Shown here piece by piece: positions 1 through 12,456 of a DNA stretch of 12,456 bases; the stretch's first letter is position 1; each line of letters starts with the position of its first letter. Location: the UHGV virus genome UHGV-0079174; one strand, 5' to 3'. The position numbers and the translations under genes are program-made. This DNA is from a virus. Under the pieces are notes generated by a model. That model worked only from the letters and a program-made list of their open reading frames with translations, ran no database searches and was not told the DNA's origin.

Positions 1-187
1 CATGTACCGGAACTTTAGGTTTTTTTCGTTGAGCGTCGCGAATAGCTTCACTGTGTGGACGTGCTGCATGAACCGGGCGGCTGTCTAAGATTAGCAAGGT
101 CTAAATACACCTCCAGTTTCAGATGGTTCCTAAAGGTGATGCTTGTGGTTATGATAGACAGAAAGATAAGACTTCCGAGGGTTAGCT

Positions 188-1021
188 ATGAGTGATGGGT
201 GGTTAGATTCTACTATGCAAGCAATAAACGATAGGATTAAAAGCCCATTATGGGGATATATCATTCTTGCATGGGTATGGTTCAACTGGCCTAACTTAGC
301 AATGCTCTTTATGAGTGATGCGCCTGTTAAGTTTCGAATAGATTATATACTATCTCAGGAATATTTTTACGCTCATTATCTGCTTGCTCCTGTCTTTTTT
401 GGAGGTGTGCTAGCTGTTATTACTCCTTATGCTCAATGGTTACTTTCTCTTGCTCAAAAATGGGCTACAGATAAACACAATGAAAATGTTTATCTTACAA
501 AGGAAAAAGAATACTTGGATTCAATCAGGTTAACGGGGTTAAAGGTTCGGGCTGCCAGAGAAGAAGAGAAAGAAAATGCTAAAATTGATGCTGATATTAA
601 AGCGGAAGTAGAGCGTGGTAAGCGTGAAGAGCTGGTCACAGAAGAGCTACAGACAGAGAAGAAACTGATTCAGAAAGAAATTAATAATTTAAAGCAGTTA
701 GTATCTAAAGAAAAACAAACCATTGAAAATATCGAGATAGAAAAAGAGAGACTACAGGATTTGATTGTTGCCTCACTTGAGGTAATGGATGATTTCTTTA
801 AAGTTGATAATAGCCATTCATTACAGCAATTGAAGAGTAGGGTAGAAGAACTTTTAACAGTTTCTGATATTGAAGCTTCTACCATACGTAACGCGCTACG
901 ACAAAAGAAAGAGCTAACTTCATCACAGACAATGAAAATGTTCGATATGGTAGAGGCTAAAATTAAAAAGGAAAAAGAAAAAGGTAATAATATAGAGTCG
1001 AATGAATTAATTAACCAATAA
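188..1021 (+). CDS. Hypothetical membrane protein: two N-terminal hydrophobic helices followed by a long charged coiled-coil-like C-terminal region
   Basis: 277-aa ORF from the track. ATG at 188 preceded by GAGGG (177-181). Hydrophobic segments WGYIILAWVWFNWPNLAMLF and HYLLAPVFFGGVLAVITPYAQWLLSLA, then an E/K-rich heptad-like sequence. No catalytic motif recognised. Confidence 0.6.
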   Translation: MSDGWLDSTMQAINDRIKSPLWGYIILAWVWFNWPNLAMLFMSDAPVKFRIDYILSQEYFYAHYLLAPVFFGGVLAVITPYAQWLLSLAQKWATDKHNENVYLTKEKEYLDSIRLTGLKVRAAREEEKENAKIDADIKAEVERGKREELVTEELQTEKKLIQKEINNLKQLVSKEKQTIENIEIEKERLQDLIVASLEVMDDFFKVDNSHSLQQLKSRVEELLTVSDIEASTIRNALRQKKELTSSQTMKMFDMVEAKIKKEKEKGNNIESNELINQ

Positions 1022-1061
1022 TGCTATGCCTGTAAATAACAGGACATAAACAGGTTAGTAC

Positions 1062-1309
1062 CTATGCAATTTAACGGTATTTTTCCAAGTATCTATGCAA
1101 TCCTACACAGATTCTATACAGTATCGACATAGCCCCTTTTTATCATAACTTATTGAAATATATAGAGAATCTGTAAATCCTCTTTTCAGGGTAAACTGTA
1201 TCGTGTTAGTCGTTCCTCTCTCGACACTACATACAGTGCTATATACAGGACTATATAACGGTGTCTATGCAGTTGGTCACTATCAATATTCCCTTAAAGT
1301 GACTATCAA
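1062..1309. repeat. Cluster of short direct repeats (iteron-like) in non-coding DNA
   Basis: CTATGCAAT at 1062-1070 and 1093-1101 (31 bp period); CTATGCAG at 1265-1272; GT(C/G)ACTATCAA at 1276-1286 and 1299-1309 (23 bp period). No ORF in the supplied track in this stretch. Confidence 0.4.
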
Positions 1310-1457
1310 GCTACTTAATAGTTTCCTATATGAAAGTTAGGAGGCGATAGTTATAGTTCCTTCGTAGTTCCCCTTAAAAAATCACTTAGAGACATCTTAA
1401 TCTATATGCAGATTTCACGTAGAACACGATTAGTGCGTAAAACAGCTATTATGTTAA

Positions 1458-1486
1458 AAACACACTGTGTTTATATCAGTACTGAT
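1458..1486. promoter_or_regulatory. Two adjacent palindromes, operator-like
   Basis: AAACACA-C-TGTGTTT (1458-1472, 7-bp arms) and a perfect 12-bp palindrome ATCAGTACTGAT (1475-1486), 2 bp apart. Confidence 0.3.
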
Positions 1487-1637
1487 TTATAAGGGTTTTG
1501 TGTATTGGCTGATAAGAGGCTATACAGCACCTTGAGAGCATGTCTTATAAGTCATTGACACATAAGGTCACAGAAGTTTGTAGCTGTTACAGAGAAAACT
1601 GGATAGGACTTCACAGAATTATAAAATGTTACAGCTA

Positions 1638-1665
1638 TTGATAGATGAAATCTTCTTGATAGATG
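1638..1665. repeat. Exact 10-bp direct repeat TTGATAGATG x2
   Basis: Copies at 1638-1647 and 1656-1665, 18 bp period, in non-coding DNA. Confidence 0.4.
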
Positions 1666-1916
1666 CTTTGAAGTGTGGTTAAGGTTTCTTGAGGTGGAGT
1701 TAACAGATGCCATGAAGAAAGTCAATAATTGGTTATAGATATTTTAACTGCTTTTGCAAAGGGGGGAGCTATATCGTGAATCTGGGGCACTTAACAGCCA
1801 TCAATTGAGTGTAGATATTTTTGAAGATTATCGGTGAAGGGGAATGTAGAGGGGTTACTACGATATTTATAAAAATTTTCAGACTCTGAAAAGTTACTGT
1901 ACAGATTTTATACAAA

Positions 1917-1940
1917 CTAAAAAGGACTCCCGAAAGAGTC
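1917..1940 (-). terminator. Candidate intrinsic terminator on the minus strand
   Basis: Stem GGACTC (1923-1928) / GAGTCC (1935-1940), 6-nt loop. On the minus strand the hairpin is followed by TTTTAGTTTGT. No T-tract follows it on the plus strand. Confidence 0.3.
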
Positions 1941-1975
1941 CCTATAAGTCGATTTTTAACGTGGCTACGACAATC

Positions 1976-2029
1976 CACCCATACCGCACCAAACCTTACC
2001 CCACCGAACCGCACCCTACACGACCTTAC
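1976..2029. repeat. C-rich (plus strand) / G-rich (minus strand) imperfect tandem repeat
   Basis: CCGCACC occurs twice and CCTTACC twice within about 55 bp (roughly CACC..ACCGCACC..CCTTACC repeated). Compositionally unlike the flanking AT-rich DNA. Confidence 0.3.
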
Positions 2030-2550
2030 CTCGCCGGACACTGCCATAGAGAGTGTGCTTGGTTGCTTTGGAAGTAAACCTAGTACAGTAAGCCATTATA
2101 CATATCGAGATAGTAACGTCAAGAAACTTTTAACAGGAGGGGTTCCTATGGTCACATATTCCCTCTCTTCCCACTAAGTAAGTCTTAGCAGCACCTAAGC
2201 AACAATTGACTAACAGGTTCGGTAGAGTCTATCTCATAGGTCAACTTCATAAACTCAGAGTTAAGTTACCTTGAAAGATTCTACCAAGAAACTACACAGG
2301 TGTTATTTAGTCTGACTGTGAAGGGATATTTAACGGGAGGAGAGATACGATATAACCCGAAGGGAGAGTATCATCTTAACAATTATCTTAAGAATAAAAC
2401 TGAAAAGTTCTTAACAGATGACTACCTAGAAAGAAGGGAACGATAAGACCAGAGGTAGTGACCTTGTTAAACAGGCTGTTTCAAAGCTCTTAAGAGTCTG
2501 TTAAGTAAGGGCTATGTGAACAATCTTACCATTTTGTCAATGCTTTTGTC

Positions 2551-2596
2551 TTTAGCAAAAAGTGCTAAACTTAACAAAAAGCACTAAATGCTAAAG
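2551..2596. promoter_or_regulatory. Repeat and inverted-repeat cluster just upstream of the methyltransferase gene
   Basis: TTTAGCA (2551-2557) / TGCTAAA (2563-2569) inverted repeat; 15-mers CAAAAAGTGCTAAAC (2556-2570) and CAAAAAGCACTAAAT (2575-2589); AAATGCTAAAG at 2586-2596 recurs at 3716-3726, and a related AAATGCTA lies in the promoter spacer at 4181-4188. Confidence 0.3.
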
Positions 2597-2634
2597 AGAC
2601 GATTAAGAAATATACTAAGAGGGGCGCTTCGCTT

Positions 2635-3303
2635 GTGTCACATCCAATAATCAATGTTGGTCGTTATCATGGTGGTTCTGATGACTGGCGTACACCGTAT
2701 CGTTTATTTCATAATCTGCATCGTGAGTTTAACTTCAGTCTAGATGGCGCTGCAACTGAGCATGACGCATTGTTGCCACGGTTCACCGATGATATTCACA
2801 ATCAATCATGGGTTGGTGAACGGGTCTTCGTTAACCCGCCGTTTAGCATGGCTGAAAAGTTCCTCTTAAAAGCCCCTGAAGCTGATGTGTGTGTATGTCT
2901 GGTTCCGCTCAGGTCAAAGACAACTTACTGGCTTCGGTGTGTATATACAAACCCCTTCCTGCATGAGATTCGAACGTTGCACCGAGCAGTCAAATACCTT
3001 CCACCAGCAGGAAAGAGAGGTGTTGTAGTGCGCTCACCGTTTCCAAGTTGCGTTTTGATATACAGGAACACACCCCGCAAACCGAAAGTTGAAGTTACCC
3101 AGACAATCTATTGTGGTGACACAATGCTTTTACTTGCCGTGGTTAACAGGGGTGGTTTACGTGGAAGACCTCATATGCACAATGCACAGACGCTTGACAG
3201 GTTGATTAAAATGTATGACCAAGGGCAACCCATCAAGAGCATCGCAGAATCGCTAAGAATGCCTCTAAGCACCACTTACAGGATTGTTCAAAGGTTGGGC
3301 TGA
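2635..3303 (+). CDS. Phage Dam-family DNA N6-adenine methyltransferase with C-terminal helix-turn-helix extension
   Basis: 222-aa ORF, GTG start 9 nt after AAGAGGGG. N-terminal DDWRTP, then VFVNPPFS (N/DPPY/F-type catalytic motif) and LVPLRSKTTYW...SPFPS, the pattern of phage Dam-type orphan methyltransferases. The last ~40 aa (GQPIKSIAESLRMPLSTTYRIVQRLG) read as a resolvase/Hin-type HTH. Family assignment is from motif memory, not a search. Confidence 0.7.
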   Translation: MSHPIINVGRYHGGSDDWRTPYRLFHNLHREFNFSLDGAATEHDALLPRFTDDIHNQSWVGERVFVNPPFSMAEKFLLKAPEADVCVCLVPLRSKTTYWLRCVYTNPFLHEIRTLHRAVKYLPPAGKRGVVVRSPFPSCVLIYRNTPRKPKVEVTQTIYCGDTMLLLAVVNRGGLRGRPHMHNAQTLDRLIKMYDQGQPIKSIAESLRMPLSTTYRIVQRLG

Positions 3304-3350
3304 AGTTCTCATATAGAGCACTGATTACGAGAATGTTAAAGATGCGATTT

Positions 3351-3541
3351 CCCCTTTCTGGGGTTATTCGCTTTTTACTGGAAGGGTTATTTTACAGAGG
3401 TTTTTCAAACCCCCTCAATAATAGAAACGAGCAACAAACGAAGAGCGAGAAATAAAAATATTGAGACTGGTGAACGGGGGTCTGTAAAGATTGTTTAAGA
3501 AGTCGGTTAAGAAGGTGGCTCTCCCTGTCTGGGGTTATCGC
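3351..3541. repeat. Direct repeat CCCT..TCTGGGGTTAT(T)CGC x2, about 171 bp apart
   Basis: CCCCTTTCTGGGGTTATTCGC (3351-3371) and CTCCCTGTCTGGGGTTATCGCC (3522-3541), in DNA with no ORF in the supplied track. Confidence 0.35.
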
Positions 3542-3768
3542 CTTGTGTCTTAGTGAGTCTTGAAAGTTCTCTGTGAAGAGTCTTGTCAGTCCTTTATATT
3601 GGCTAATTACAACTCATTGAAAAAATAAGCATTTTTAGAAATTACTGTCAGAGGGGTGAATACTTGATAGATACAGCTTTCCGGTTCTGTCAAGCTATTT
3701 ATTAATGGATAGCACAAAATGCTAAAGATACCCCTATACCATCACGTACAGGGGGTTTTGAAGGGAGT

Positions 3769-4026
3769 TTAACGGGGTTCTGTGTGGTCGTTATCCTTAA
3801 GGTCAAGCGTCCATGTACGACCGAACAGTTTAAAGACAACAAGCACTCTGACGAGGACGTAGCGAAGTAGCAGACCTGCAATCAGCCCAACACCTCCACC
3901 AGCCCATACATCAGGTGACCCCAGCTCAGGAGGGAGATTTACCATTAGTTTTCCTTGTAAGACGCTCTCAATCGCATTCTGACACAAAAAAGTACCTGAC
4001 CTTATATGTTGACCTGAAGAGGCCAT
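3769..4026 (-). CDS. Hypothetical small protein with one hydrophobic segment; coding status uncertain
   Basis: 85-aa minus-strand ORF with hydrophobic stretch GGGVGLIAGLLLRYVLVRVLVVF. A candidate minus-strand promoter lies upstream (4126-4155). Weak ribosome-binding site. Confidence 0.3.
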   Translation of the reverse strand: MASSGQHIRSGTFLCQNAIESVLQGKLMVNLPPELGSPDVWAGGGVGLIAGLLLRYVLVRVLVVFKLFGRTWTLDLKDNDHTEPR

Positions 4027-4125
4027 TTAACTCGTTACAGAGCGATTGAAGAGGTCTGTGTGCAATGCAATAACCATGCGGCCATTCTCATAGCCACGCC
4101 TCATATTTTACTCTCCCATAAACCC

Positions 4126-4155
4126 ATTATACCACAGATGTTAATAAAATGTTAA
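4126..4155 (-). promoter_or_regulatory. Candidate sigma70-type promoter on the minus strand, divergent from the plus-strand promoter
   Basis: On the minus strand: -35 TTAACA (plus 4150-4155), 18-bp spacer, -10 TATAAT (plus 4126-4131). Confidence 0.3.
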
Positions 4156-4161
4156 AAATGC

Positions 4162-4190
4162 TTGACATTAGTCTTTGAAAATGCTAGTAT
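4162..4190 (+). promoter_or_regulatory. Sigma70-type promoter (first of two matching promoters)
   Basis: -35 TTGACA (4162-4167), 17-bp spacer, -10 TAGTAT (4185-4190), followed by TGTATATATAGG (4191-4202), which is identical to the 12-mer after the second promoter. First gene starts 51 nt downstream. Confidence 0.55.
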
Positions 4191-4240
4191 TGTATATATA
4201 GGTTAACACAGAATTAACAATTATAAGGACTAGCTTATGA

Positions 4241-4795
4241 ATGAGAGACGCAGAATTTAGAGCGATGCTTCAGGCATCGAGACAACGTAACAGATACAAC
4301 TCCTACAGCTACACAGACACCCCCACCAGCTACGAATTACCCAAGCTCACCCAAAAAGAACGCAAAGGCATTGACGAAGTAATTCGGGCAATTACACCGA
4401 GGGAACGTTATATGCCAACCAGAAAGAGCACGAAGAACAGCATCAAAAATTATTTGAATAACTTCGACAGCTATGAGCAACTACCAAGTAAGCTTGATGA
4501 TATTTTCATTGGATTCTGTAGAAGTGAAGGCCACCCGAAATACAACAAAAAACTATTTTATCTTCTAAAGAATCTTGACGAAATTAACGCATCCAGCGTG
4601 ACAAATCGTCTTCAGCGTCAAGCAACCAGACTTAGCTACGAATTACCAACCGATGCCTATTGTGCATTGCTTGCTGTAATGTGTGCAAAGCTAATTGGTA
4701 TTGTTGAACATCATATTGCCGTTGGTAATATTGAGCCAATGGAAAACGAGCAACCAGACTTTGAGTTTGACCCGTATATTTTGGAGGAATTTTAA
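4241..4795 (+). CDS. Hypothetical protein with acidic C-terminal tail
   Basis: 184-aa ORF, ATG at 4241 preceded by TAAGGA. C-terminal EPMENEQPDFEFDPYILEEF. No recognisable domain. Confidence 0.55.
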   Translation: MRDAEFRAMLQASRQRNRYNSYSYTDTPTSYELPKLTQKERKGIDEVIRAITPRERYMPTRKSTKNSIKNYLNNFDSYEQLPSKLDDIFIGFCRSEGHPKYNKKLFYLLKNLDEINASSVTNRLQRQATRLSYELPTDAYCALLAVMCAKLIGIVEHHIAVGNIEPMENEQPDFEFDPYILEEF

Positions 4796-4796
4796 A

Positions 4797-5078
4797 ATGG
4801 GAAATAAACACACATTAACCAGAGTTACAAAGACAGCCTTTGAAGAGCTTAACCGAATCAAAAACATTACAGGTCTGCCACACTCAGCAGTGATGAAGCT
4901 TGCAATTAACCGTGATATTAACGAACAAGATTTGCTTAATAGTCGCTTAGAGGCAGCAAGACACCATATCAGGATTAAGCAAGATGACCTTGATAGTCTG
5001 AAATATTTAAATGCTTTTGGACTGGATTTAGCAAGGTTACTAAGCATCAAAATTCACAAATTAGCGATGGAGGTTTAA
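4797..5078 (+). CDS. Small protein, possibly a ribbon-helix-helix DNA-binding protein
   Basis: ATG at 4797 sits 9 nt after GGAGG (4783-4787) and 1 nt after the upstream stop; the track's 4695 start would overlap the upstream gene by 100 nt. N-terminus KHTLTRVTKTAFEELNRIKNITGLPHSAVMKLAI resembles a strand-helix-helix pattern. Fold call is tentative. Confidence 0.5.
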   Translation: MGNKHTLTRVTKTAFEELNRIKNITGLPHSAVMKLAINRDINEQDLLNSRLEAARHHIRIKQDDLDSLKYLNAFGLDLARLLSIKIHKLAMEV

Positions 5079-5464
5079 TGTATGACTTTTATAAACATCG
5101 TGACCATTTGGTAAGATTTGACGGTAAAGTCTGGAAAGACGTAACACAAACCAATAAACCCAAGTTTACCCACCAGCAATTAGCCTCAAGATTTGATATC
5201 TGGACTGAAGCACAAAAAGATAATGGTGATTTCGAGTTTATCAGAGGTTTTGATTATTCTTACGAAGACGACCTTAAAGACGCCATTAAATTAATTGAGA
5301 ACTTCAACTCTATTAAAAATGGTGACAAGCACAAAGCCAACGGTAACAGATACGATAAAGATTTAATCATTGATGCAATCACCAAAGGACAATCACAAAG
5401 TTATATTTCTGAGAAATACGGCTTATCACGTAGTCAATACTACAAGATTAAAGCGTCTGTGTAA
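5078..5464 (+). CDS. Hypothetical protein with C-terminal helix-turn-helix
   Basis: 128-aa ORF. Its ATG overlaps the upstream stop (TAATG at 5076-5080), indicating translational coupling. C-terminal DAITKGQSQSYISEKYGLSRSQYYKIK is the same resolvase-type HTH flavour as the methyltransferase C-terminus. Confidence 0.6.
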   Translation: MYDFYKHRDHLVRFDGKVWKDVTQTNKPKFTHQQLASRFDIWTEAQKDNGDFEFIRGFDYSYEDDLKDAIKLIENFNSIKNGDKHKANGNRYDKDLIIDAITKGQSQSYISEKYGLSRSQYYKIKASV

Positions 5465-5476
5465 GTCTGTGAGAAT

Positions 5477-5523
5477 GAGTGAGACTCAAAGATGAGCTAC
5501 CCTATTACTAAGGTGTCTCACTC
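5477..5523. promoter_or_regulatory. 9-bp perfect inverted repeat GAGTGAGAC / GTCTCACTC separated by 29 bp
   Basis: Arms at 5477-5485 and 5515-5523, between two genes. No T-tract follows, so it is more likely a binding site or RNA structure than a simple terminator. Confidence 0.3.
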
Positions 5524-5602
5524 CCTCTGTAACCCGCATGGTTACTGGCCTCAGGATGGCTATTTTGGCAGATTTAAGATGTGTTTTTAGAGGATTTTAA
5601 AA

Positions 5603-5926
5603 ATGAATAATTTCCCGCTACAGATTTTCGTTGATAGCGACACCGCTCTGATGATTCAGGCTTTCAGTGATTCCGGTGTATCAATTGACTTTGATAAATT
5701 ACTAAAGCTAATGGCTGATAACTCAGAAACAATTGAAGATTTTATTCAGGAAATTGAAACTGGTGACCCACGTTTTATGTTTCCCGTTACCGACTCAAAC
5801 ATGAAGCGCCTTATTATTGAGGAAACTAACCGATACAGCGTTAGCCCTGAAAAATATCTCAAGGCGGCTATAGTAATTTTGTACGCTGACAATGTTTTGG
5901 TTACGGATTCGAAGGTGGTGCATTAA
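5603..5926 (+). CDS. Hypothetical acidic protein
   Basis: 107-aa ORF, ATG at 5603 preceded by AGAGGA (5589-5594). Confidence 0.55.
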   Translation: MNNFPLQIFVDSDTALMIQAFSDSGVSIDFDKLLKLMADNSETIEDFIQEIETGDPRFMFPVTDSNMKRLIIEETNRYSVSPEKYLKAAIVILYADNVLVTDSKVVH

Positions 5927-5991
5927 TGGAATTGGTGATTATCTGTTTTGTATTGATTGGTATGATTGCAGGTGCATCTATTAAAGTATAA
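5926..5991 (+). CDS. Candidate 21-aa hydrophobic micro-protein MELVIICFVLIGMIAGASIKV
   Basis: ATG overlaps the upstream stop (TAATG at 5924-5928). Almost entirely hydrophobic, one predicted transmembrane helix. Below the ORF-track size threshold. Confidence 0.3.
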   Translation: MELVIICFVLIGMIAGASIKV

Positions 5992-6015
5992 ATGTTACCA
6001 ATCTGTTAAAAGCTG

Positions 6016-6044
6016 TTGACAAATAACCTTGAGCATGACATAAT
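6016..6044 (+). promoter_or_regulatory. Sigma70-type promoter (second of two matching promoters)
   Basis: -35 TTGACA (6016-6021), 17-bp spacer, -10 CATAAT (6039-6044), followed by TGTATATATAGG (6045-6056). Confidence 0.55.
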
Positions 6045-6146
6045 TGTATATATAGGGAGAGCAATTCTCCTTGAATTAAAATATTAATCATTCTACATCG
6101 ATGATAACTATATTCTGAGTTGGAAAGGTGCAATGCTTTTCGCTAC

Positions 6147-6175
6147 ATGACCTCTTATATAACTTGAGAGGTCAT
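6147..6175 (+). promoter_or_regulatory. Hairpin in the long leader (9-bp stem ATGACCTCT / AGAGGTCAT, 11-nt loop)
   Basis: Perfect 9-bp inverted repeat about 100 nt downstream of the predicted start site. No T-tract follows. Confidence 0.35.
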
Positions 6176-6234
6176 CTCGAAAAGTCTTTGTTCATTCATT
6201 GAATCCTTTAGATGTTCTTTAATTTCTTCACCTT

Positions 6235-6270
6235 AGCCCTTTATAGCGTTTTAGTTATCTAGGGCTTTTT
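6235..6270 (+). terminator. Terminator-like hairpin inside the leader (possible attenuator)
   Basis: Stem AGCCCT (6235-6240) / AGGGCT (6261-6266), 20-nt loop, then TTTT (6267-6270). Lies about 190-220 nt downstream of the promoter and about 110 nt before the first gene. The long loop weakens the call. Confidence 0.3.
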
Positions 6271-6378
6271 CAGCTTTTAAAAAGCATACATGGCAAACGC
6301 TTTTAAGTCTCTTCTAAGTTCGTAGGCTGTCAGGTGTGCTTTTTAAAAACTGAATATTACTTAGAAGAGGAAAATGAA

Positions 6379-7086
6379 ATGGAAAATCTATATATTAGCG
6401 GTAGAAAGGTTGATAGCTTCGGTGACTGGTCGCCACAGACTGAACATCCAGCTATCACTATTCAGCGTAAAGAACACGATGAAAGAATTAAGCTTGAGCA
6501 ATCGTTAAAGATGTCACCAAAGGTAATTTCCTTTGTGTCTCCTGAGCCTCAAGAAATGCCAGATATCTGCAAAAGTGAAGCACTATTTAATCTTGAGCGT
6601 GAATATTACCCACAGTTAAAAGCACAGCGTATTAAACTTGATGACGCTTACAGCAAAGTTACCCTGATGCAATCAGCTATTGAGCCGTCAGAATTTGAGA
6701 TTCAGGATGAATTGTCACAGAAACCATTTGTCTATTACAAATATGAAGACAATGATGGTTTTGGTACTTTTCCTGAGAATATCCCAGACGTGATTAATAA
6801 TCTTTCTGACGGATATCGAATTGTGAAGATGGTTAAGGCATCAAGAGGTGCTGGTCAGTTTATTTACATGACTAATAAGAGCGATGAAGAACTCGCTGAA
6901 CTTGCTAGACAGAACATCTTGGCATCACGTAACAAGCAGCTTGATAGTGCTAAGTTGTATCTCTCAAGAGAGCTTCAGGCTATGAAAGAGCTTGTTAGTG
7001 AATATGAGTCGCAGAAGAAGGTTGCTATGCAGGCTGATATTGAGCAGCTTACGAAGATTTCTAGCAAATATGCAAAAGCTATTTGA
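6379..7086 (+). CDS. Hypothetical protein with C-terminal coiled-coil-like region
   Basis: In-frame ATG at 6379 preceded by GAGGAAAA (6367-6374); the track's GTG at 6334 has no ribosome-binding site. 235 aa from 6379. No recognisable domain. Confidence 0.55.
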   Translation: MENLYISGRKVDSFGDWSPQTEHPAITIQRKEHDERIKLEQSLKMSPKVISFVSPEPQEMPDICKSEALFNLEREYYPQLKAQRIKLDDAYSKVTLMQSAIEPSEFEIQDELSQKPFVYYKYEDNDGFGTFPENIPDVINNLSDGYRIVKMVKASRGAGQFIYMTNKSDEELAELARQNILASRNKQLDSAKLYLSRELQAMKELVSEYESQKKVAMQADIEQLTKISSKYAKAI

Positions 7087-7094
7087 GGTGATTA

Positions 7095-7403
7095 ATGAGT
7101 GATTTAACAGAACGCGATAAAAGAATTAAAGGGGTGATGGAACCTTTTGAAGATAGGTTCAATGAAATTAAAACGACTCTTGGTGATATTCAGGAGGTCA
7201 CTGAATATCTTATTGGTCGTATGGACGAAAAGCCTCTTGCCGAACTAAAGTTTGAGGGTCGAGATGATTTAACCTTCCTTATTAGAGACCTCAAGCGAGA
7301 TGTAGGACGGCTTGAATCTATCTTTGATAAAGCTGGTCTCTCAATACGTTACGAAATTGTAAAGAATGAACGCGGTGTAAAGTGCATTCACTTCTTGGAG
7401 TGA
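7095..7403 (+). CDS. Hypothetical small acidic protein
   Basis: 102-aa ORF. Extended Shine-Dalgarno GAGGTGAT (7085-7092) before ATG 7095. N-terminus MSDLTER. Confidence 0.55.
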   Translation: MSDLTERDKRIKGVMEPFEDRFNEIKTTLGDIQEVTEYLIGRMDEKPLAELKFEGRDDLTFLIRDLKRDVGRLESIFDKAGLSIRYEIVKNERGVKCIHFLE

Positions 7404-7425
7404 AAATTGAATTATGAGGTGATGA

Positions 7426-7632
7426 ATGATTGATTTAACAGAACGCTATGAACTCATCAGGGCAATTAGCGAACGATTGAAAGAACAACCCAACAAACCA
7501 AAACGAATCAAATCATCCACCTCTAAGCAAAATAACAGAATCAGAAGAATCGCTAAATGGTGTCTTGATAAATTACCAAGTGATTGTCAGATTGTCGGTG
7601 AAGATGGCAATTATTATCTTGTCAGACATTAA
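7426..7632 (+). CDS. Hypothetical small basic protein
   Basis: 68-aa ORF. GAGGTGAT (7416-7423) before ATG 7426. N-terminus MIDLTER. Its first ~37 bp are near-identical to the start region of the gene at 7095. Confidence 0.5.
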   Translation: MIDLTERYELIRAISERLKEQPNKPKRIKSSTSKQNNRIRRIAKWCLDKLPSDCQIVGEDGNYYLVRH

Positions 7633-7658
7633 AAAGAATTGGTTGGGTAAAAATCAAC

Positions 7659-7699
7659 GGGAGAGATTATCGAGTGACATCGGTAGCTCTCCCTTTTTT
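7659..7699 (+). terminator. Candidate intrinsic terminator
   Basis: Stem GGGAGAG (7659-7665) / CTCTCCC (7687-7693) followed by TTTTTT (7694-7699). The 21-nt loop is long for a canonical terminator. Confidence 0.4.
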
Positions 7700-7814
7700 G
7701 TATATGTGCTACGTGATGATTCGGATAAGAATTATCCTCATGAAATCTGTAAAGCTAATACCCACACTGAAAAATAGAATTTACGTACAACACGCTTAAA
7801 GAGGTGAAACATGA

Positions 7815-9863
7815 ATGAGCAAATTCACAGTTGATAGTTTTATCGTTGAACTAGGCTTCAATGAGAACGTTATTAAAGGTCTGCAAAAAGTTGAAAAGGC
7901 AGCTTTGCAGTCAGCACAAAGAATTGAACGTAATTTGAATAGAGCGTTTAAGGTCGATACCAAGCAACTTGACAGTAATTTAACGGCTTCTTTAAAGTCA
8001 ATGGAAGGGAAGATTAATAAGACCTTTGACCGTCTGGAAGCTAGAGCAAAAAATACTAAAGCTTTCCGTTTCACAAGTCAGGTTAATGACGCTATTAATC
8101 CTCCAAAACAACCAAGACAGCCACGAATTAGCGGAAACAGAGCAATCACAGCAGCTTATTCAGCTAATATGAGCAAGCTGAAAGGTCTTAACCCAATTGT
8201 CGAGAAATACATTAAGAGTCAGTTTTACGCATTAAGTAGTAAAGCTGGTCAGATGGATAACACCAAGTTTAATGAAGCCCTCGCTAAACTAAATTCAAGT
8301 GTACGAGAAGCAATTGCTAAAGCCAGAGGTCATACATCCACCAGCATTAACGGTGACAGAGCAGCTAGCAGTCTTGATAGTCTGTCTTCAGCAGCAGTTA
8401 AAACAGCAGGTGCATTTATCAGCTTTCAGGCTGTACTATCCGCTTATCAGCGAGTAATGGAAGTTGGCCTTCAACGTGCATCATCGGAAAGAAGTATTGA
8501 TTTCGTATTCGGTGACCAAAGTACACAGGTTAAAAAGTTCATTCAAGATTTAACTCAAATTACTGGTATGGACACAACCGAAACACAAGCACAATTTGCT
8601 TCATTTGGTGCATCTGCAACGACTACGATGGGTCTTGAAGGGTCAGAAGAGTTATTTAAAAACCTTACAGGTTATGCTCGTTTAATGGGTCGTTCAGATG
8701 AGCAGATTCAAAGAGCATTAACCGCAGTGTCACAGATGGCCTCTAAGGGTCAGGTGATGGCTGAGGAGTTGAAGGGGCAATTATCTGAAGCTTTGCCGGG
8801 TGCTACTCAGGCATTTGCAAAGGCTTTAGGTCTGACTGAAAAACAACTTTTCGATAAGATGAAAAATGGTGATGTTAAAGCCTCTGATGCACTTCCTAAG
8901 TTTGCTAAAGAACTTGGTGCACAGATTAATTCAAGAGGTGGCTGGAAAGCTATTCAGGACTCTACGCAGACAATGTTAGGGAACTTAAAGAATACCTGGA
9001 ATAACTCACTAACGGATATTTTCAGAGGTTCTGAAAATGGTCTGCAAGATTTTACACGAAGCCTAACAACGCTTTTAAACAGTTTAGGTGGAAGTGGTAA
9101 AAGTCTTGGTGAATCTCTTGGTAGCTTGATGACTGATATGTCGCATGGTGTGGATAGCCTGACCGATATCAGTTACAGAGTGAGAGCTTTCTTTGATGAG
9201 GTGACATTGGCTTACCGTGGTTTAACCGATGAGCAAAAGAAAGTAGTTGATGCTTTAGGTTCTGGCTTGATTAATAGTTTAAAAGTCTTGGCTGGTGTTA
9301 TTGCTGTAAATAAAGTTGTTGGTGTAACCAGAAGTATTTACGGGCTTATGACTGCTATCACAAGATTAGGTCAGGTCGCTGATACAACAGCGGATAACGT
9401 GAATAGAAAGAACGGGAAACCATCAAGGTTTAATCTTGGGAATATGCTATTAGCTGGTAGTGCTATCTATGCAGGTTATGAGAGATTAGCTTCTACGCCT
9501 GAACGAATGGAAGCACAAGCTAAATTACCAGAGCTGGCTAAAGAGTCTGGACTTAAGCCAGTATTTACTATGGACGATGTGAAAGGTTGGTTTAATAGTG
9601 CTGCTATGAATCTTGCTAACTTCCAGCATCCAGAATTAATCACCATGAGACAAGATGCGGCATTAACGAATACGGATATCCAAAGCCTGAGAGATGAAAT
9701 TAGTGCTTTGAGCAAACGTATTCAGGAGCCTGTGAAAGTTTCACTTGGTGGTGAAGTTGCCATTAAACCAGATGAAACCAGCTTTATGACCTTTAGCAGT
9801 AATATCTACGACCAATACGCAGAAGCTACGCTATTAAGTTCATCATTCCCAGAAGATGATTGA
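7815..9863 (+). CDS. Tape-measure-like protein (phage tail length tape-measure domain)
   Basis: 682-aa ORF, AAGAGGTGA before ATG 7815. Central segment KGQVMAEELKGQLSEALPGATQAFAKALGLTEKQLFDKMKNGDVKASDALPKFAKELGAQ matches the conserved tape-measure domain pattern from memory. A/S/G/L-rich helical composition with internal hydrophobic segments. Confidence 0.6.
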   Translation: MSKFTVDSFIVELGFNENVIKGLQKVEKAALQSAQRIERNLNRAFKVDTKQLDSNLTASLKSMEGKINKTFDRLEARAKNTKAFRFTSQVNDAINPPKQPRQPRISGNRAITAAYSANMSKLKGLNPIVEKYIKSQFYALSSKAGQMDNTKFNEALAKLNSSVREAIAKARGHTSTSINGDRAASSLDSLSSAAVKTAGAFISFQAVLSAYQRVMEVGLQRASSERSIDFVFGDQSTQVKKFIQDLTQITGMDTTETQAQFASFGASATTTMGLEGSEELFKNLTGYARLMGRSDEQIQRALTAVSQMASKGQVMAEELKGQLSEALPGATQAFAKALGLTEKQLFDKMKNGDVKASDALPKFAKELGAQINSRGGWKAIQDSTQTMLGNLKNTWNNSLTDIFRGSENGLQDFTRSLTTLLNSLGGSGKSLGESLGSLMTDMSHGVDSLTDISYRVRAFFDEVTLAYRGLTDEQKKVVDALGSGLINSLKVLAGVIAVNKVVGVTRSIYGLMTAITRLGQVADTTADNVNRKNGKPSRFNLGNMLLAGSAIYAGYERLASTPERMEAQAKLPELAKESGLKPVFTMDDVKGWFNSAAMNLANFQHPELITMRQDAALTNTDIQSLRDEISALSKRIQEPVKVSLGGEVAIKPDETSFMTFSSNIYDQYAEATLLSSSFPEDD

Positions 9864-9875
9864 TAATAGTCGAAT

Positions 9876-9930
9876 GCTACGTGAAATCTCCTGAACAGAT
9901 ATACCCACCAAAAATTATTTTTCACGTAGC
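9876..9930. promoter_or_regulatory. 11-bp perfect inverted repeat GCTACGTGAAA / TTTCACGTAGC separated by 33 bp
   Basis: Arms at 9876-9886 and 9920-9930, between the tape-measure-like gene and the next gene. TTTCACGTAG also occurs at 1413-1422. Confidence 0.35.
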
Positions 9931-10020
9931 TCACGCTTAACAGATAAAACACTTAAATATCAAAGGCTTGGTTAAAAATGATTAAAATACACTAAGTCTT
10001 TGAAATCAAAGGAGAATATA

Positions 10021-10794
10021 ATGATTTACACTAATCAACTTCGTTACAGTGGCAAAGATGGTATCTATTTCCACTTAAGAGATAATGTAGATGCCTTCTT
10101 AACCTTATCAGCAACTGAAAACATGGAATTTGACAGCCCTATGCAGGTGACTACACAGAACATGCAATCAGGGCAAACCGTAACAGATAACGTGCAAAGA
10201 GCACCCAGAACAATCACTATTAGTGGTGTCGTTGTAGTTGGCTATGAAGGAAGCTTATTATTAACTCGTCAGGGTCAATTAGTAGAAAATTTCATCGACA
10301 CTCTTGAAAGCTGGCGTGACCAGAAGCAGATTATTTCTGTCATCTGTCGAGACGGTATCAAAATTGATGATTCCATTATTACGAGTTTTAAAGCCTCTAA
10401 AGATGTTGGAATTTCAAATGGTCTAAGAATCCAGCTAACTTTTCAGGAAATTAACTTCAAAGCCATTGTGGGTCAGACTGATATCTCTGCTGCAACTGGA
10501 AAGACCGCTACCACAAATGATGGTGGTGCTACTTCTAAGAAAAATACGGGTAACACTACGACAAGTCTAGGTAATGGTATGTTGATGTGTCAGGAGCTAT
10601 ATAATCGCTCTACGAGTGAACTCACTAATGAGCAACTTCAAGCCCGTATCAATTGTGGTAGAAGTGTCAAAGTTGAGAACGGAAAAAGCACCTTCTCAGA
10701 TGCCGCTAATGAGCAAGCTTCGAAAGTGCTTAGTAATGCTGGTACAGGTAGTACTTTGAAGAAATTTTCTGTAAATCCTAACAAGCGATACTGA
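10021..10794 (+). CDS. Hypothetical protein, possibly tail-associated by position
   Basis: ATG at 10021 sits 6 nt after AAGGAG (10009-10014); the track's TTG at 10000 is less likely. 257 aa from 10021. C-terminal third is T/G/N/S-rich low complexity. Function is inferred only from lying immediately after the tape-measure-like gene. Confidence 0.5.
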
Positions 10795-10808
10795 CGATAG
10801 AATCTCAA

Positions 10809-12332
10809 CTATATGATAACCTCATCAACATCTATTAAACCCCTCTCAGTGACTTCAGAAAGCGACTGTATAGCCTCTGTAACGTCCTCTGAGGGGTTTT
10901 CTGTTATTGATAGGTCAATTACCTTACCGTTGTGAAAACTTACTTTACAGCGACGTTTAGCAGTATTTAAAACGACCTCTTTAACAGCACTTTTGATTAT
11001 CAGTTGTGCTTCAATCCTTCCCGCCTTTGTAGTCAAGTCACAATCAGACAAACAACCAACATCAATAGATTTAAGGCGTTGTGTCTCCTTCTCGATATCC
11101 GCATCAACCTGTGATAGCTCACCTTTTAACTGCTTTAGTTTGATGGTAATAGCTGACAAATCTTCAATTTCAAGTGATAGCTGTACCAGCTTTTCAATAT
11201 TGCTTGAGATGTGTTCACGGTGTAGCTTCAGCGTATCTATGGTATTCGTCATATCGCTATCAAATCGGTCAAGACGAGATAGCAGGGTAAGTAATGTACC
11301 ATCAGTTTGCTTACGTGAAAGTCCTTTAGCACTACAACGGTTTTCATTACGAAGGGGACAACGATAAATCCCGCTTCTTGTATCGCTAAAGCCTGTGATA
11401 ATCAAAGCATGACCACATTCAGAACAACGGATAACACCTTTGAAAAGATTCACAGCCATTGGCTTATCTGAAGCAGGTTTTCTACCGTAACGAGAATATG
11501 ATAGTTGTTGAACTTTGTAGAATGTTGTTTCATCTATAATTGCAGGATAATAACCAGCTATCTCCTCACAGCCTTTAGGTGTGAAGTAACCAATTACAGA
11601 GCGATTTTTCAGAAGGTCTTGTACTGAGGTTTGACCAAATGAACCCGCTTTATATTGGTTAAGCGTCTGGTGACCTTCATCATTAAGAGTCCTGACAATC
11701 TCCCAGATAGACTTACCCTCTAACCGTAGCTGAAAGCACCTCTTCACAGTCTCCACTTTCTCAGGGATTACAGAGAAGCTTTTACGGTCATCATTAAGCT
11801 TAAGCCATGCAGGACAACGTTTAGAAATCTTGATACCTTCAGAGATGAGTTCTTTTTTACGGTTCCATGCAGCTTGTATACGCTCAGACTTCCTCAAACT
11901 CTCCTCATGCGACCGCTGCATTATCAGAATGCTTTTAATCAGAGCTAACGGGTCTTTAAGAGATTCTCGTGTGTAATGTTCACCATCGGACAAGGTGACC
12001 ACATCTACACCAGAGCGAAGAATGTTTCTGAGTAGCTCACTTGCTTGGTCTACATCTTGACGTGACAGACGGTCAAGAGATTCTATCAAGAGCGTATCAC
12101 CAGCTTTAACAAGCCCTTTCTCGATAGCGGTTAAAAAGTCACCTAAGCCACCTTTCAAGTGCTTACCAGTGAACCCACTCACCCCCAAATCACGGAAGGA
12201 TAAATCTTGGTCAAGGTAGTACTCAGGATGAGCCTTAAGCCAGTCATTAACCATCTTAGACTGTCTGCGTAGTGAGTCGCCTTTGGCTTGTCGCTCAGAA
12301 CTGAATCTGATGTAGCTGATTACACGTTTCAT
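10809..12332 (-). CDS. Large serine recombinase (probable integrase of the element)
   Basis: 507-aa ORF. N-terminal resolvase-type catalytic domain with YIRFSSERQ (nucleophile-serine motif, compare YIRVSTEEQ), a Cys-rich zinc-ribbon-like segment CSECGH...YRCPLRNENRC, and a C-terminal coiled-coil region. This is the domain order of phage-type large serine integrases. Confidence 0.85.
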   Translation of the reverse strand: MKRVISYIRFSSERQAKGDSLRRQSKMVNDWLKAHPEYYLDQDLSFRDLGVSGFTGKHLKGGLGDFLTAIEKGLVKAGDTLLIESLDRLSRQDVDQASELLRNILRSGVDVVTLSDGEHYTRESLKDPLALIKSILIMQRSHEESLRKSERIQAAWNRKKELISEGIKISKRCPAWLKLNDDRKSFSVIPEKVETVKRCFQLRLEGKSIWEIVRTLNDEGHQTLNQYKAGSFGQTSVQDLLKNRSVIGYFTPKGCEEIAGYYPAIIDETTFYKVQQLSYSRYGRKPASDKPMAVNLFKGVIRCSECGHALIITGFSDTRSGIYRCPLRNENRCSAKGLSRKQTDGTLLTLLSRLDRFDSDMTNTIDTLKLHREHISSNIEKLVQLSLEIEDLSAITIKLKQLKGELSQVDADIEKETQRLKSIDVGCLSDCDLTTKAGRIEAQLIIKSAVKEVVLNTAKRRCKVSFHNGKVIDLSITENPSEDVTEAIQSLSEVTERGLIDVDEVII

Positions 12333-12361
12333 TCTTTACCACCATAAAAACTAATAGCGCG

Positions 12362-12390
12362 ATTGTATCGCTTTAGGTGGTGTATTTAAA
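12362..12390 (-). promoter_or_regulatory. Candidate promoter for the recombinase gene
   Basis: On the minus strand: -35 TTTAAA (plus 12385-12390), 17-bp spacer, -10 TACAAT (plus 12362-12367). The -10 overlaps the palindrome GCGAT-TGT-ATCGC (12359-12371). Confidence 0.25.
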
Positions 12391-12456
12391 CGTGTCTGAT
12401 GAAAATCACCCGATTAACGCCGCGCTGATGTAAACCGCGATTAAGCGTTTGTTCCT

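Follow-up and report, generated by a model that had tools for sequence, protein, structure and literature searches.

The window analysed here, the whole 12,456-nt stretch of the viral genome UHGV-0079174, holds an integrative element, complete and ~12.3 kb long (95-12404), that splits the Escherichia coli gene yecE (DUF72) near positions 94 and 12405 and is probably a phage satellite with tail genes of its own. Between its tape-measure gene and its Dit-like baseplate gene lies the inverted repeat 9876-9930, to which a preliminary description of the sequence had drawn attention and which, judged by comparison with other DNA, is an intact copy of a palindromic DNA unit, 55 bp long and strongly conserved. 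The features at this locus are the following.

7815-9863, plus strand: tape-measure gene (Pfam TMP_3), flanked by copies B and A of the unit
9862-9867, plus strand: GATAAT, a putative -10-like hexamer 8 nt ahead of the unit
9876-9930, no strand assigned: copy A, the intact 55-bp unit, with left arm GCTACGTGAAATCT (9876-9889), spacer and right arm TTTTTCACGTAGC (9918-9930)
9931-9944, plus strand: conserved right flank TCACGCTTAACAGA, near-invariant in the alignment of relatives
9960-10003, plus strand: second stem-loop (stem of 13 bp), 3' of the unit and 5' of the Dit-like ribosome-binding site (AGGAG, 10010-10014)
10021-10794, plus strand: Dit-like baseplate gene (Pfam Dit_like), downstream of copy A

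Read directly from the sequence, the repeat consists of the arms GCTACGTGAAA (9876-9886) and TTTCACGTAGC (9920-9930), 33 nt apart, and TTTCACGTAG occurs a third time at 1413-1422; the preliminary description was exact in all of these. The repeat begins 12 nt past the tape-measure stop codon (9861-9863) and ends 90 nt ahead of the Dit-like start (10021). The 10-mer, allowing up to one mismatch, is found 5 times in the window against 0.98 expected, a count reached in 2 of 200 shuffles. Of 500 shuffles that preserved the dinucleotides of the window, 95 (19%) held one or more perfect 11-bp inverted repeats with gaps of 3-60 nt, and since the repeat is thus unremarkable by chance statistics, its significance had to come from comparison with other sequences.

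Conservation in relatives, which the preliminary description had proposed as a check, was borne out by eight E. coli relatives of the element (86-94% identity) that were chosen independently of the repeat. All eight share unchanged arms, GCTACGTGA and T(C/T)ACGTAGC, and an outer span of 55 bp, the 37 nt between these 9-mers vary, in some relatives nearly entirely, and the small proteins of the satellites diverge to 24-60% identity while the arms stay invariant. Relatives bear the unit 27-30 nt before the start of the tape-measure gene, of the Dit-like gene or of both, and 32 of 36 distinct satellite loci have it ahead of the Dit-like gene, in a sample biased by the way in which loci were retrieved. 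The flank TCACGCTTAACAGA accompanies the unit in satellites, also 3' of the copies upstream of the tape-measure gene, and a similar sequence, GCGCACGCTTA, comes after the unit in a P1-like locus. The hairpin at 9960-10003 is part of a stretch of about 75 nt that is missing from one type of relative, in which the unit-to-ATG distance is 29 nt; by this comparison it is a second small palindromic insertion or deletion in the same intergenic region.

The unit, which is found outside satellites too, has the consensus GCTACGT(G/A)AAWTCTG - 25 nt - CAGAWTT(C/T)ACGTAGC, often extended on both sides by GC or GGCGTC. A search of IMG/VR with the pattern GCTACGTGA-N(30-40)-TYACGTAGC matched 23 contigs, in which the gap was 37 nt in all satellite and P1-like matches save one satellite with 38, and the only other gap length, 33, came from two contigs of one unrelated element; several of the 37-nt-gap matches had unrelated spacers and flanks. 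A metagenome scan yielded at least 120 loci, which together with the other loci fall by spacer into 62-65 clusters, drawn from viral, plasmid and metagenome DNA, and across 62 of these clusters the arms are kept and the spacer is free, as in the eight E. coli relatives. The unit was also found in some chromosomal intergenic regions. A covariance model built from 57 non-satellite copies only matched 9876-9930 on both strands (E-value ~5e-6), and its next two matches in the window were the copies B and C described below. That the 55-bp length stays fixed despite substitution-saturated spacers suggests that both arms are read at once at a set distance and that the length of the unit is under selection. 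The preliminary description had suggested that the arms would suit either a dimeric pair of binding sites or a large stem-loop; fixed spacing, conserved arms and a free spacer fit the pair of sites, although the repeat may instead form a large stem-loop. None of the unit's 15-mers was found in open-access full text searchable by sequence, nor did the literature on the P1 cra/cre regulatory region yield anything relevant to it; the 55-bp cassette is widely distributed and apparently undescribed so far.

The copy in phage P1 lies at nt 117-174 of AF234173, as GCGCTACGTAAAATCTG-N25-CAGATTTCGCGTAGCGC, between loxP and cra-cre, where the dyad carries neither an annotation nor an assigned function. 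The P1 cre regulatory region (pR1/P3cre, between loxP and cra) therefore resembles the window locus in carrying the unit and differs from it in having a recombinase gene downstream, where the window has tail genes. The annotated -10 of P3cre (TAAAAT, 124-129) falls inside one arm, whereas the window arm reads TGAAAT, a poor -10. As an aside, the P1 spacer holds TGGCGGTGTTA at nt 140-155, which is close to what we take to be a lambda operator half-site, GGCGGTGATA; as it lies in the variable spacer, the likeness is probably due to chance.

Tyrosine recombinase genes are frequent neighbours of the unit, lying within 600 bp of it in 34 of the 65 listed clusters and farther off in 6 more; another 5 of the listed clusters are satellites. 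The unit ends 17-38 nt before Cre-like or ResD-like start codons, in either orientation, with Cre-like genes (~343 amino acids) beginning 36-38 nt and ResD-like genes (~251 amino acids) 23 nt after it. On an IncHI2 plasmid the unit stands 23 nt ahead of the recombinase gene; more than 5000 plasmid records match this ResD-like region, mostly at 60-80% identity and 88 of them over most of its length, with the unit confirmed in one plasmid only. The resD gene of the F plasmid has no unit and was rejected as a model. Recombinase loci have a -10-like hexamer (TAAAAT or TATAAA) 7-9 nt before the unit, and one of them has a full ATGACA-17-TATAAA promoter at that place; this would put the transcription start at about the first base of the unit. 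Cre-like loci have, in addition, a separate 13-8-13 lox site 65-170 nt upstream of the unit, and the order lox site, unit, recombinase gene is common to many of them. The arms of these lox sites vary between loci while those of the unit stay fixed, which indicates that the neighbouring recombinase is not the reader of the unit. The unit itself was rejected as a Cre-like or ResD-like recombination site, given the separate, co-varying lox-like sites nearby. Lox-like 13-8-13 sites with differing arms next to Cre-like genes were seen in L102, L055, L047, L111, L019 and other loci, for example ATGACTTCGTATA-attgttct-TATACGAAGTCAT and CTAACATTACATA-ataagcat-TATGTAATGTTAG, and may, with the adjoining genes, be regarded as candidate new pairs of recombinase and site.

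We tentatively favour the view that the unit is a portable cis-regulatory cassette, an operator on duplex DNA for a factor whose gene is not in the element, and we hold this view only weakly. Here we speculate that two inverted 15-bp half-sites with the consensus GCTACGTGAAWTCTG, exactly 25 nt apart, would serve as a two-half-site operator on double-stranded DNA, that a sequence-specific dimer or tetramer, host-encoded or common to many mobile elements, would contact the two arms from the same face of the helix, and that binding at or just downstream of the transcription start would set the expression level of the downstream gene. The regulated genes would be, in satellites, the tape-measure and Dit-like genes, just upstream of whose ribosome-binding sites the unit is placed, and, in P1 and plasmids, the recombinase gene that follows the lox-type site and the unit. 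Binding by a protein, its action on transcription and the kind of protein involved are what we infer; what the data show is how the unit is conserved, built and distributed, that copies come and go, and that it does not depend on the specificity of the recombinase beside it. In its geometry the unit is what a dimeric or tetrameric operator calls for, the same recognition sequence twice, in inverted orientation, at a constant distance that keeps the helical phase. At arm positions 12-15 the complementarity is that expected of independent arms, each of which fits the consensus alone, and the spacers of satellite copies have no extra RNA structure (z-score ~0). Pair 11/45 alone swaps AU for UA, as a symmetric dimer site and a stem would equally predict.

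Fixed-distance inverted half-sites on one helical face, overlap with the start of the regulated transcript and a position directly upstream of a recombinase gene are also features of known two-site operators, such as those of dimeric or tetrameric repressors, Tn3 res and the site of the F plasmid D protein at rfsF. The unit differs from the operators of resolvase genes in that its half-sites do not co-vary with the adjacent recombinase and in that the resD gene of the F plasmid is without it. In addition, the unit arms hold ATTTCAC and GTGAAAT, presumably the box A heptamers that flank the IHF bend in P1 parS, and the two arms stand about four helical turns apart, as if joined by a bend. This likeness is a lead only: the unit lacks box B (TCGCCA), neither arm of the P1 copy agrees fully with box A, and satellites and IncHI2 plasmids are without P1 ParB.

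A reader encoded by the element itself was suggested by the preliminary description, which named the element's own helix-turn-helix (HTH) proteins for binding assays and imagined that one factor may bind both ends of the gene block. The candidates would be a Dam-HTH_7 fusion (2635-3303) and a 128-amino-acid protein (5078-5464), both with HTH matches, so that the element has at least two such proteins, and their binding would link the left non-coding region, where motif copies occur as they do before both tail genes, with the end of the tail genes. We consider this very unlikely. The same arms stand in P1, an IncHI2 plasmid and chromosomal loci, no homologue of any satellite protein was found in the P1-like genome or, as far as searched, in the other non-satellite loci that bear the unit, and a satellite protein is therefore very probably not the reader. 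The arms also stay invariant where the candidate proteins diverge strongly or go missing, the Dam-HTH_7 protein having no match in the relatives L009-L011. Among other candidate binders, P1 Cra was rejected, as the satellite has no Cra homologue, and no protein shared by satellite and P1 was found.

The idea of two ends was further weakened by the copies inside the window, which precede the two tail genes or are decayed remnants on the left; copy B, and the place of the 1413-1422 motif in a decayed copy, had escaped the preliminary description.

1325-1383, plus strand: degenerate arm remnants in the left non-coding region, from a nine-element alignment and covariance-model alignment; the weakest of the parts listed
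1409-1423, plus strand: right arm of copy C, CAGATTTCACGTAGA, from a half-site scan, matching the general arm consensus at 14/15 positions
7708-7789, no strand assigned: copy B, disrupted, upstream of the tape-measure gene, from the sequence and alignment to intact copies of relatives

Copy B reads GCTACG (7708-7713), a 27-nt insertion (7714-7740), TGAAATCTG... (7741-7779) and a degenerate right arm TTTACGTACA (7780-7789); it aligns with intact units in five relatives (L016, L021, L022, L024 and L025) that end 27-29 nt before the tape-measure start, and is the second-best match of the model from non-satellite copies (R1; 7741-7783, E-value 0.49). The insertion carries the palindrome GGATAA-GAA-TTATCC. 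It belongs to a family of small palindromes, GGATAR-N3-4-YTATCC (~27 nt), which in relatives including L006 and L008 fills a site that is otherwise empty. The third-best match of the same model, 1375-1417, is copy C, whose arm in relatives reads TTTCAYGTAG or has diverged. Judged from the alignments, the motif at 1413-1422 is the right arm of a decayed copy with its partners at 1325-1339 and ~1369-1383: CCTATATGAAAGTTA (1325-1339) corresponds to (G/C)CTACGTGAAAGTTA in relatives, TTCGTAG occupies 1362-1368, and CTTAAAAAATCAC at ~1369-1383 stands at the 55-bp distance from the 1409-1423 arm. These partner remnants are better kept in relatives, yet the left-hand copies are decayed in most of them. 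The motif noticed in the left non-coding region by the preliminary description is thus a genuine repetition of the 55-bp unit, as both the alignment of relatives and the covariance model indicate.

Several observations weigh against the operator, and those given first also speak for a close rival, namely that the unit is a dispersed palindrome like the repetitive extragenic palindromic (REP) elements or REPINs, a small hairpin-forming intergenic repeat that spreads, or is swapped, between mobile elements and chromosomes. At the site before the tape-measure gene the copy shows a clean presence/absence polymorphism with sharp borders, as a mobile repeat would: three collinear relatives (L005, L007 and L010) have no copy B at all, and in other collinear relatives the site is empty or holds a different small palindrome. 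Paralogous copies occur within one element, and in L087 two copies 2.3 kb apart share ~80 nt including their flanks. In 20 of the 65 listed clusters (~30%) the unit is found in other intergenic places, with no recombinase or tail gene beside it, and in some of these it separates the 3' ends of converging genes, a position hardly suited to an operator. A GC-rich inner hairpin and, after it, a T-run are present in about half of the copies outside satellites, with stems that differ in sequence and yet pair, in the manner of an RNA terminator, and in the window, where the unit follows the tape-measure stop codon at 12 nt, the RNA of 9876-10025 folds into two strong hairpins (z-score -4.2). Apart from these points, a scan of 9700-10100 on both strands for sigma-70 sites found no full promoter, no candidate binding protein turned up for the unit, and to our knowledge its half-site has no convincing match to those of CRP, ArgR, IHF, Fis, H-NS, LexA, DnaA, sigma-32, sigma-54 or to the MotA box. 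Since a palindrome is the same on both strands, its independence of orientation is no argument against a hairpin. Finally, a G-to-A change at arm position 8, found in exactly one arm in ~53% of clusters and almost never in both, is left unexplained by every reading.

A REP-like RNA stem-loop would protect the 3' end of the upstream message, attenuate read-through or form a processing site, and in the satellite it would decouple and tune the expression of the tape-measure and Dit-like genes, which overlap in the helper phage. The terminal CTAC/GTAG of the unit recalls the GTAG of REP elements, and further small palindromes likewise come and go between these genes. With REP, BIME and REPIN elements of enterobacteria and pseudomonads the unit shares the nature of a short extragenic palindrome, the presence/absence polymorphism and the possible mRNA hairpins. 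The arms end CGTAGC / GCTACG in all copies, but the GTAG lies within the stem and not 5' of it. REP elements would be expected in tens to hundreds of copies per genome; the unit is present once in the 89-kb P1-like genome, as 2-4 copies or remnants in a 12-kb satellite and in 1-2 copies per metagenome locus. No RAYT (Y1 transposase) was found among the clustered flanking proteins within a few kb around each copy, where tyrosine recombinases, tail genes or ordinary genes adjoin the unit. The unit further differs from these families in that its arms are not hairpins themselves, in that its spacer is free in sequence but fixed in length, and in its enrichment immediately before genes of plasmids, phages and satellites.

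The behaviour of the spacers and stems speaks against a spreading hairpin. Spacers differ wholly between clusters while arms and length are constant, which argues for selection at each locus or for a protein that recognises the arms, and not for recent copying. The arms show no compensatory covariation, and the sense-strand RNA of Cre-like loci would have an A x C mismatch in the stem; sequence rather than pairing is conserved, which points to recognition by a protein in any case. Satellite copies have a stem of 9-11 bp, an unstructured loop of 33-35 nt and no U-run, and are thus not terminators. The window copy, with its 33-nt loop and TCACGC 3' of the unit, does not qualify as an intrinsic terminator with a GC stem, short loop and U-run, and a scan of 9700-10100 for terminators gave no terminator-like site; a terminator or a sigma-70 promoter at the window copy was accordingly rejected. 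So was a known RNA family, as Rfam gave no match in the window at E-values up to 1, and only a spurious sub-threshold match to mir-137 in six other unit-bearing loci. Altogether we regard the REP-like explanation as possible, if on balance unlikely.

Copies of the unit on both sides of the tape-measure gene suggest another role, that of recombination sites or module boundaries, where units would be joints for swapping gene cassettes, here the tape-measure gene, between satellites. Swapping could be site-specific, through a folded attC-like hairpin and a recombinase supplied in trans, or could occur by homologous recombination across a conserved anchor of 55-65 bp. In some relatives the tape-measure gene stands between two direct copies of the unit; between the window and L022 the divergent segment extends from ~7700 to ~9846, that is from unit to unit, with identity falling from ~95% to 55-70% at copy B and recovering at copy A; spacer types are shuffled between positions A and B across satellites; and tyrosine recombinase genes are found near 34-40 of the 65 listed clusters. 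Nevertheless, other breakpoints, such as 9763, lie ~110 nt from the unit, the satellites are mosaic everywhere, beyond the tape-measure gene, and the adjacent recombinases have lox-type sites of their own that co-vary with them. The satellite's recombinase is a serine and not a tyrosine recombinase, and the attachment-site halves at the ends of the window are unrelated to the unit. A role as attP of this serine recombinase was rejected: the element is integrated, with its attachment halves at ~94 and ~12405, and the unit is internal and intact. We therefore judge a role in cassette exchange improbable.

Integron attC sites are, like the unit, imperfect palindromes of ~55-60 bp at cassette boundaries, and T4-type PeSLs are small promoter or stem-loop units that flank exchangeable phage genes. 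The unit has neither the RYYYAAC/GTTRRRY core sites of attC nor an integron integrase; it ends GCTACGTG...CACGTAGC, its arms are unlike the R and L boxes, and the adjacent recombinases are Cre-like or ResD-like. It departs from attC and PeSL alike in that sequence, not structure, is conserved and in that the scan showed no sigma-70 promoter within the window copy. Its 15-bp arms, 25 nt apart, are also unlike the arm-spacer-arm layout of a lox-type site, with 13-bp arms, a spacer of 6-8 bp and co-variation with the recombinase. The more specific version, in which an attC-like or protein-recognised joint serves for excising or swapping tail-gene cassettes with enzymes that plasmids or P1-like phages in the same cell would provide in trans, appears to us very improbable.

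The remaining proposal concerns the helper phage. The similarity of the tail genes to those of Felixounavirus, together with an integrative gene set, makes the element look like a Felix O1-type phage satellite with tail-length and baseplate genes of its own, and this is probable on gene content. Genes other than the two tail genes include the following.

2635-3303: Dam-type N6-adenine methyltransferase fused to a C-terminal resolvase-type HTH (HTH_7), from protein-domain matches
10809-12332, minus strand: large serine recombinase

The element also codes for several orphan genes. Its tape-measure protein shares 27% amino-acid identity over the full length with its Felixounavirus homologue, and its Dit-like gene shares 94% nucleotide identity over 535 bp (82% amino-acid identity) with the phage gene, from which it follows that satellite and Felixounavirus genomes recombine. 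This near identity of the neighbouring gene would fit a unit that copies a regulatory or pac sequence of Felix O1-type phages for switching on or packaging the satellite. In Felixounavirus, however, the counterpart of the Dit-like gene is directly 3' of the tape-measure gene, and the two abut with no intergenic unit. A scan of the complete Felixounavirus genome ESCO45 found neither the exact motif nor paired arms, with one-mismatch matches at background level, and no phage record matches the region. Felix O1 has been reported to use host-type promoters (PMC3185647), which also counts against mimicry. This explanation is therefore largely refuted, and we give it almost no weight.

The junction of tape-measure and Dit-like genes was found in 467 of 5426 complete E. 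coli genomes (~9%), always in the chromosome, and relatives of the element also occur in E. albertii, Citrobacter and Shigella. Our literature search found no description of a satellite of Felixounavirus or Felix O1-type phages like this element. A different type of satellite may use the same cassette: in L026, a contig of 21.6 kb that comes from an isolate genome and matches no known phage at the DNA level, the unit (4576-4630) stands 21 nt upstream of a structural-looking gene of 487 amino acids, beside a gene for an adaptor-like protein of SU10 (Kuravirus).

Some further features of the element were observed. An HNH endonuclease gene lies between the homologues of 4797-5078 and 5078-5464 in L007-L010 and not in the window, an insertion polymorphism. 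A direct repeat of 38 nt with 89% identity (7084-7121 and 7415-7452) covers the ribosome-binding sites and first codons of two neighbouring genes, 7095-7403 (MSDLTER...) and 7426-7632 (MIDLTER...), and suggests a tandem gene duplication. The long stretches 1022-2634 and 3304-4240 are without convincing genes; within the former, 1430-1600 is almost invariant among relatives that differ elsewhere, has no Rfam match and may represent either an RNA gene or a densely packed region of control sites. Another large inverted repeat was seen at 6249-6374, with 47-nt arms of 72% complementarity and perfect 11-bp palindromic pairs at ~6275-6370; it lies just upstream of the gene at 6379 and downstream of the best sigma-70-like promoter of the window (6016-6044, TTGACA-17-CATAAT with TG).

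If the signal is real, the cre region of P1, which ranks among the best-studied phages, a large set of enterobacterial plasmids and a satellite-like element of ~9% of complete E. coli genomes have one unit in common, which nevertheless goes unannotated. Should a conserved factor read this unit, a hidden regulon of mobile-element genes would come into view, with a possible effect on the expression of Cre from native P1 sequences. Given that the unit sits where the overlapping tape-measure and baseplate genes of the helper phage are pulled apart in the satellite, it may offer a handle on the timing or dosage of the satellite's own tail proteins. If, instead, the unit is a joint of tail cassettes, a cassette upstream of thousands of plasmid recombinase genes would be tied to the remodelling of satellite tails.

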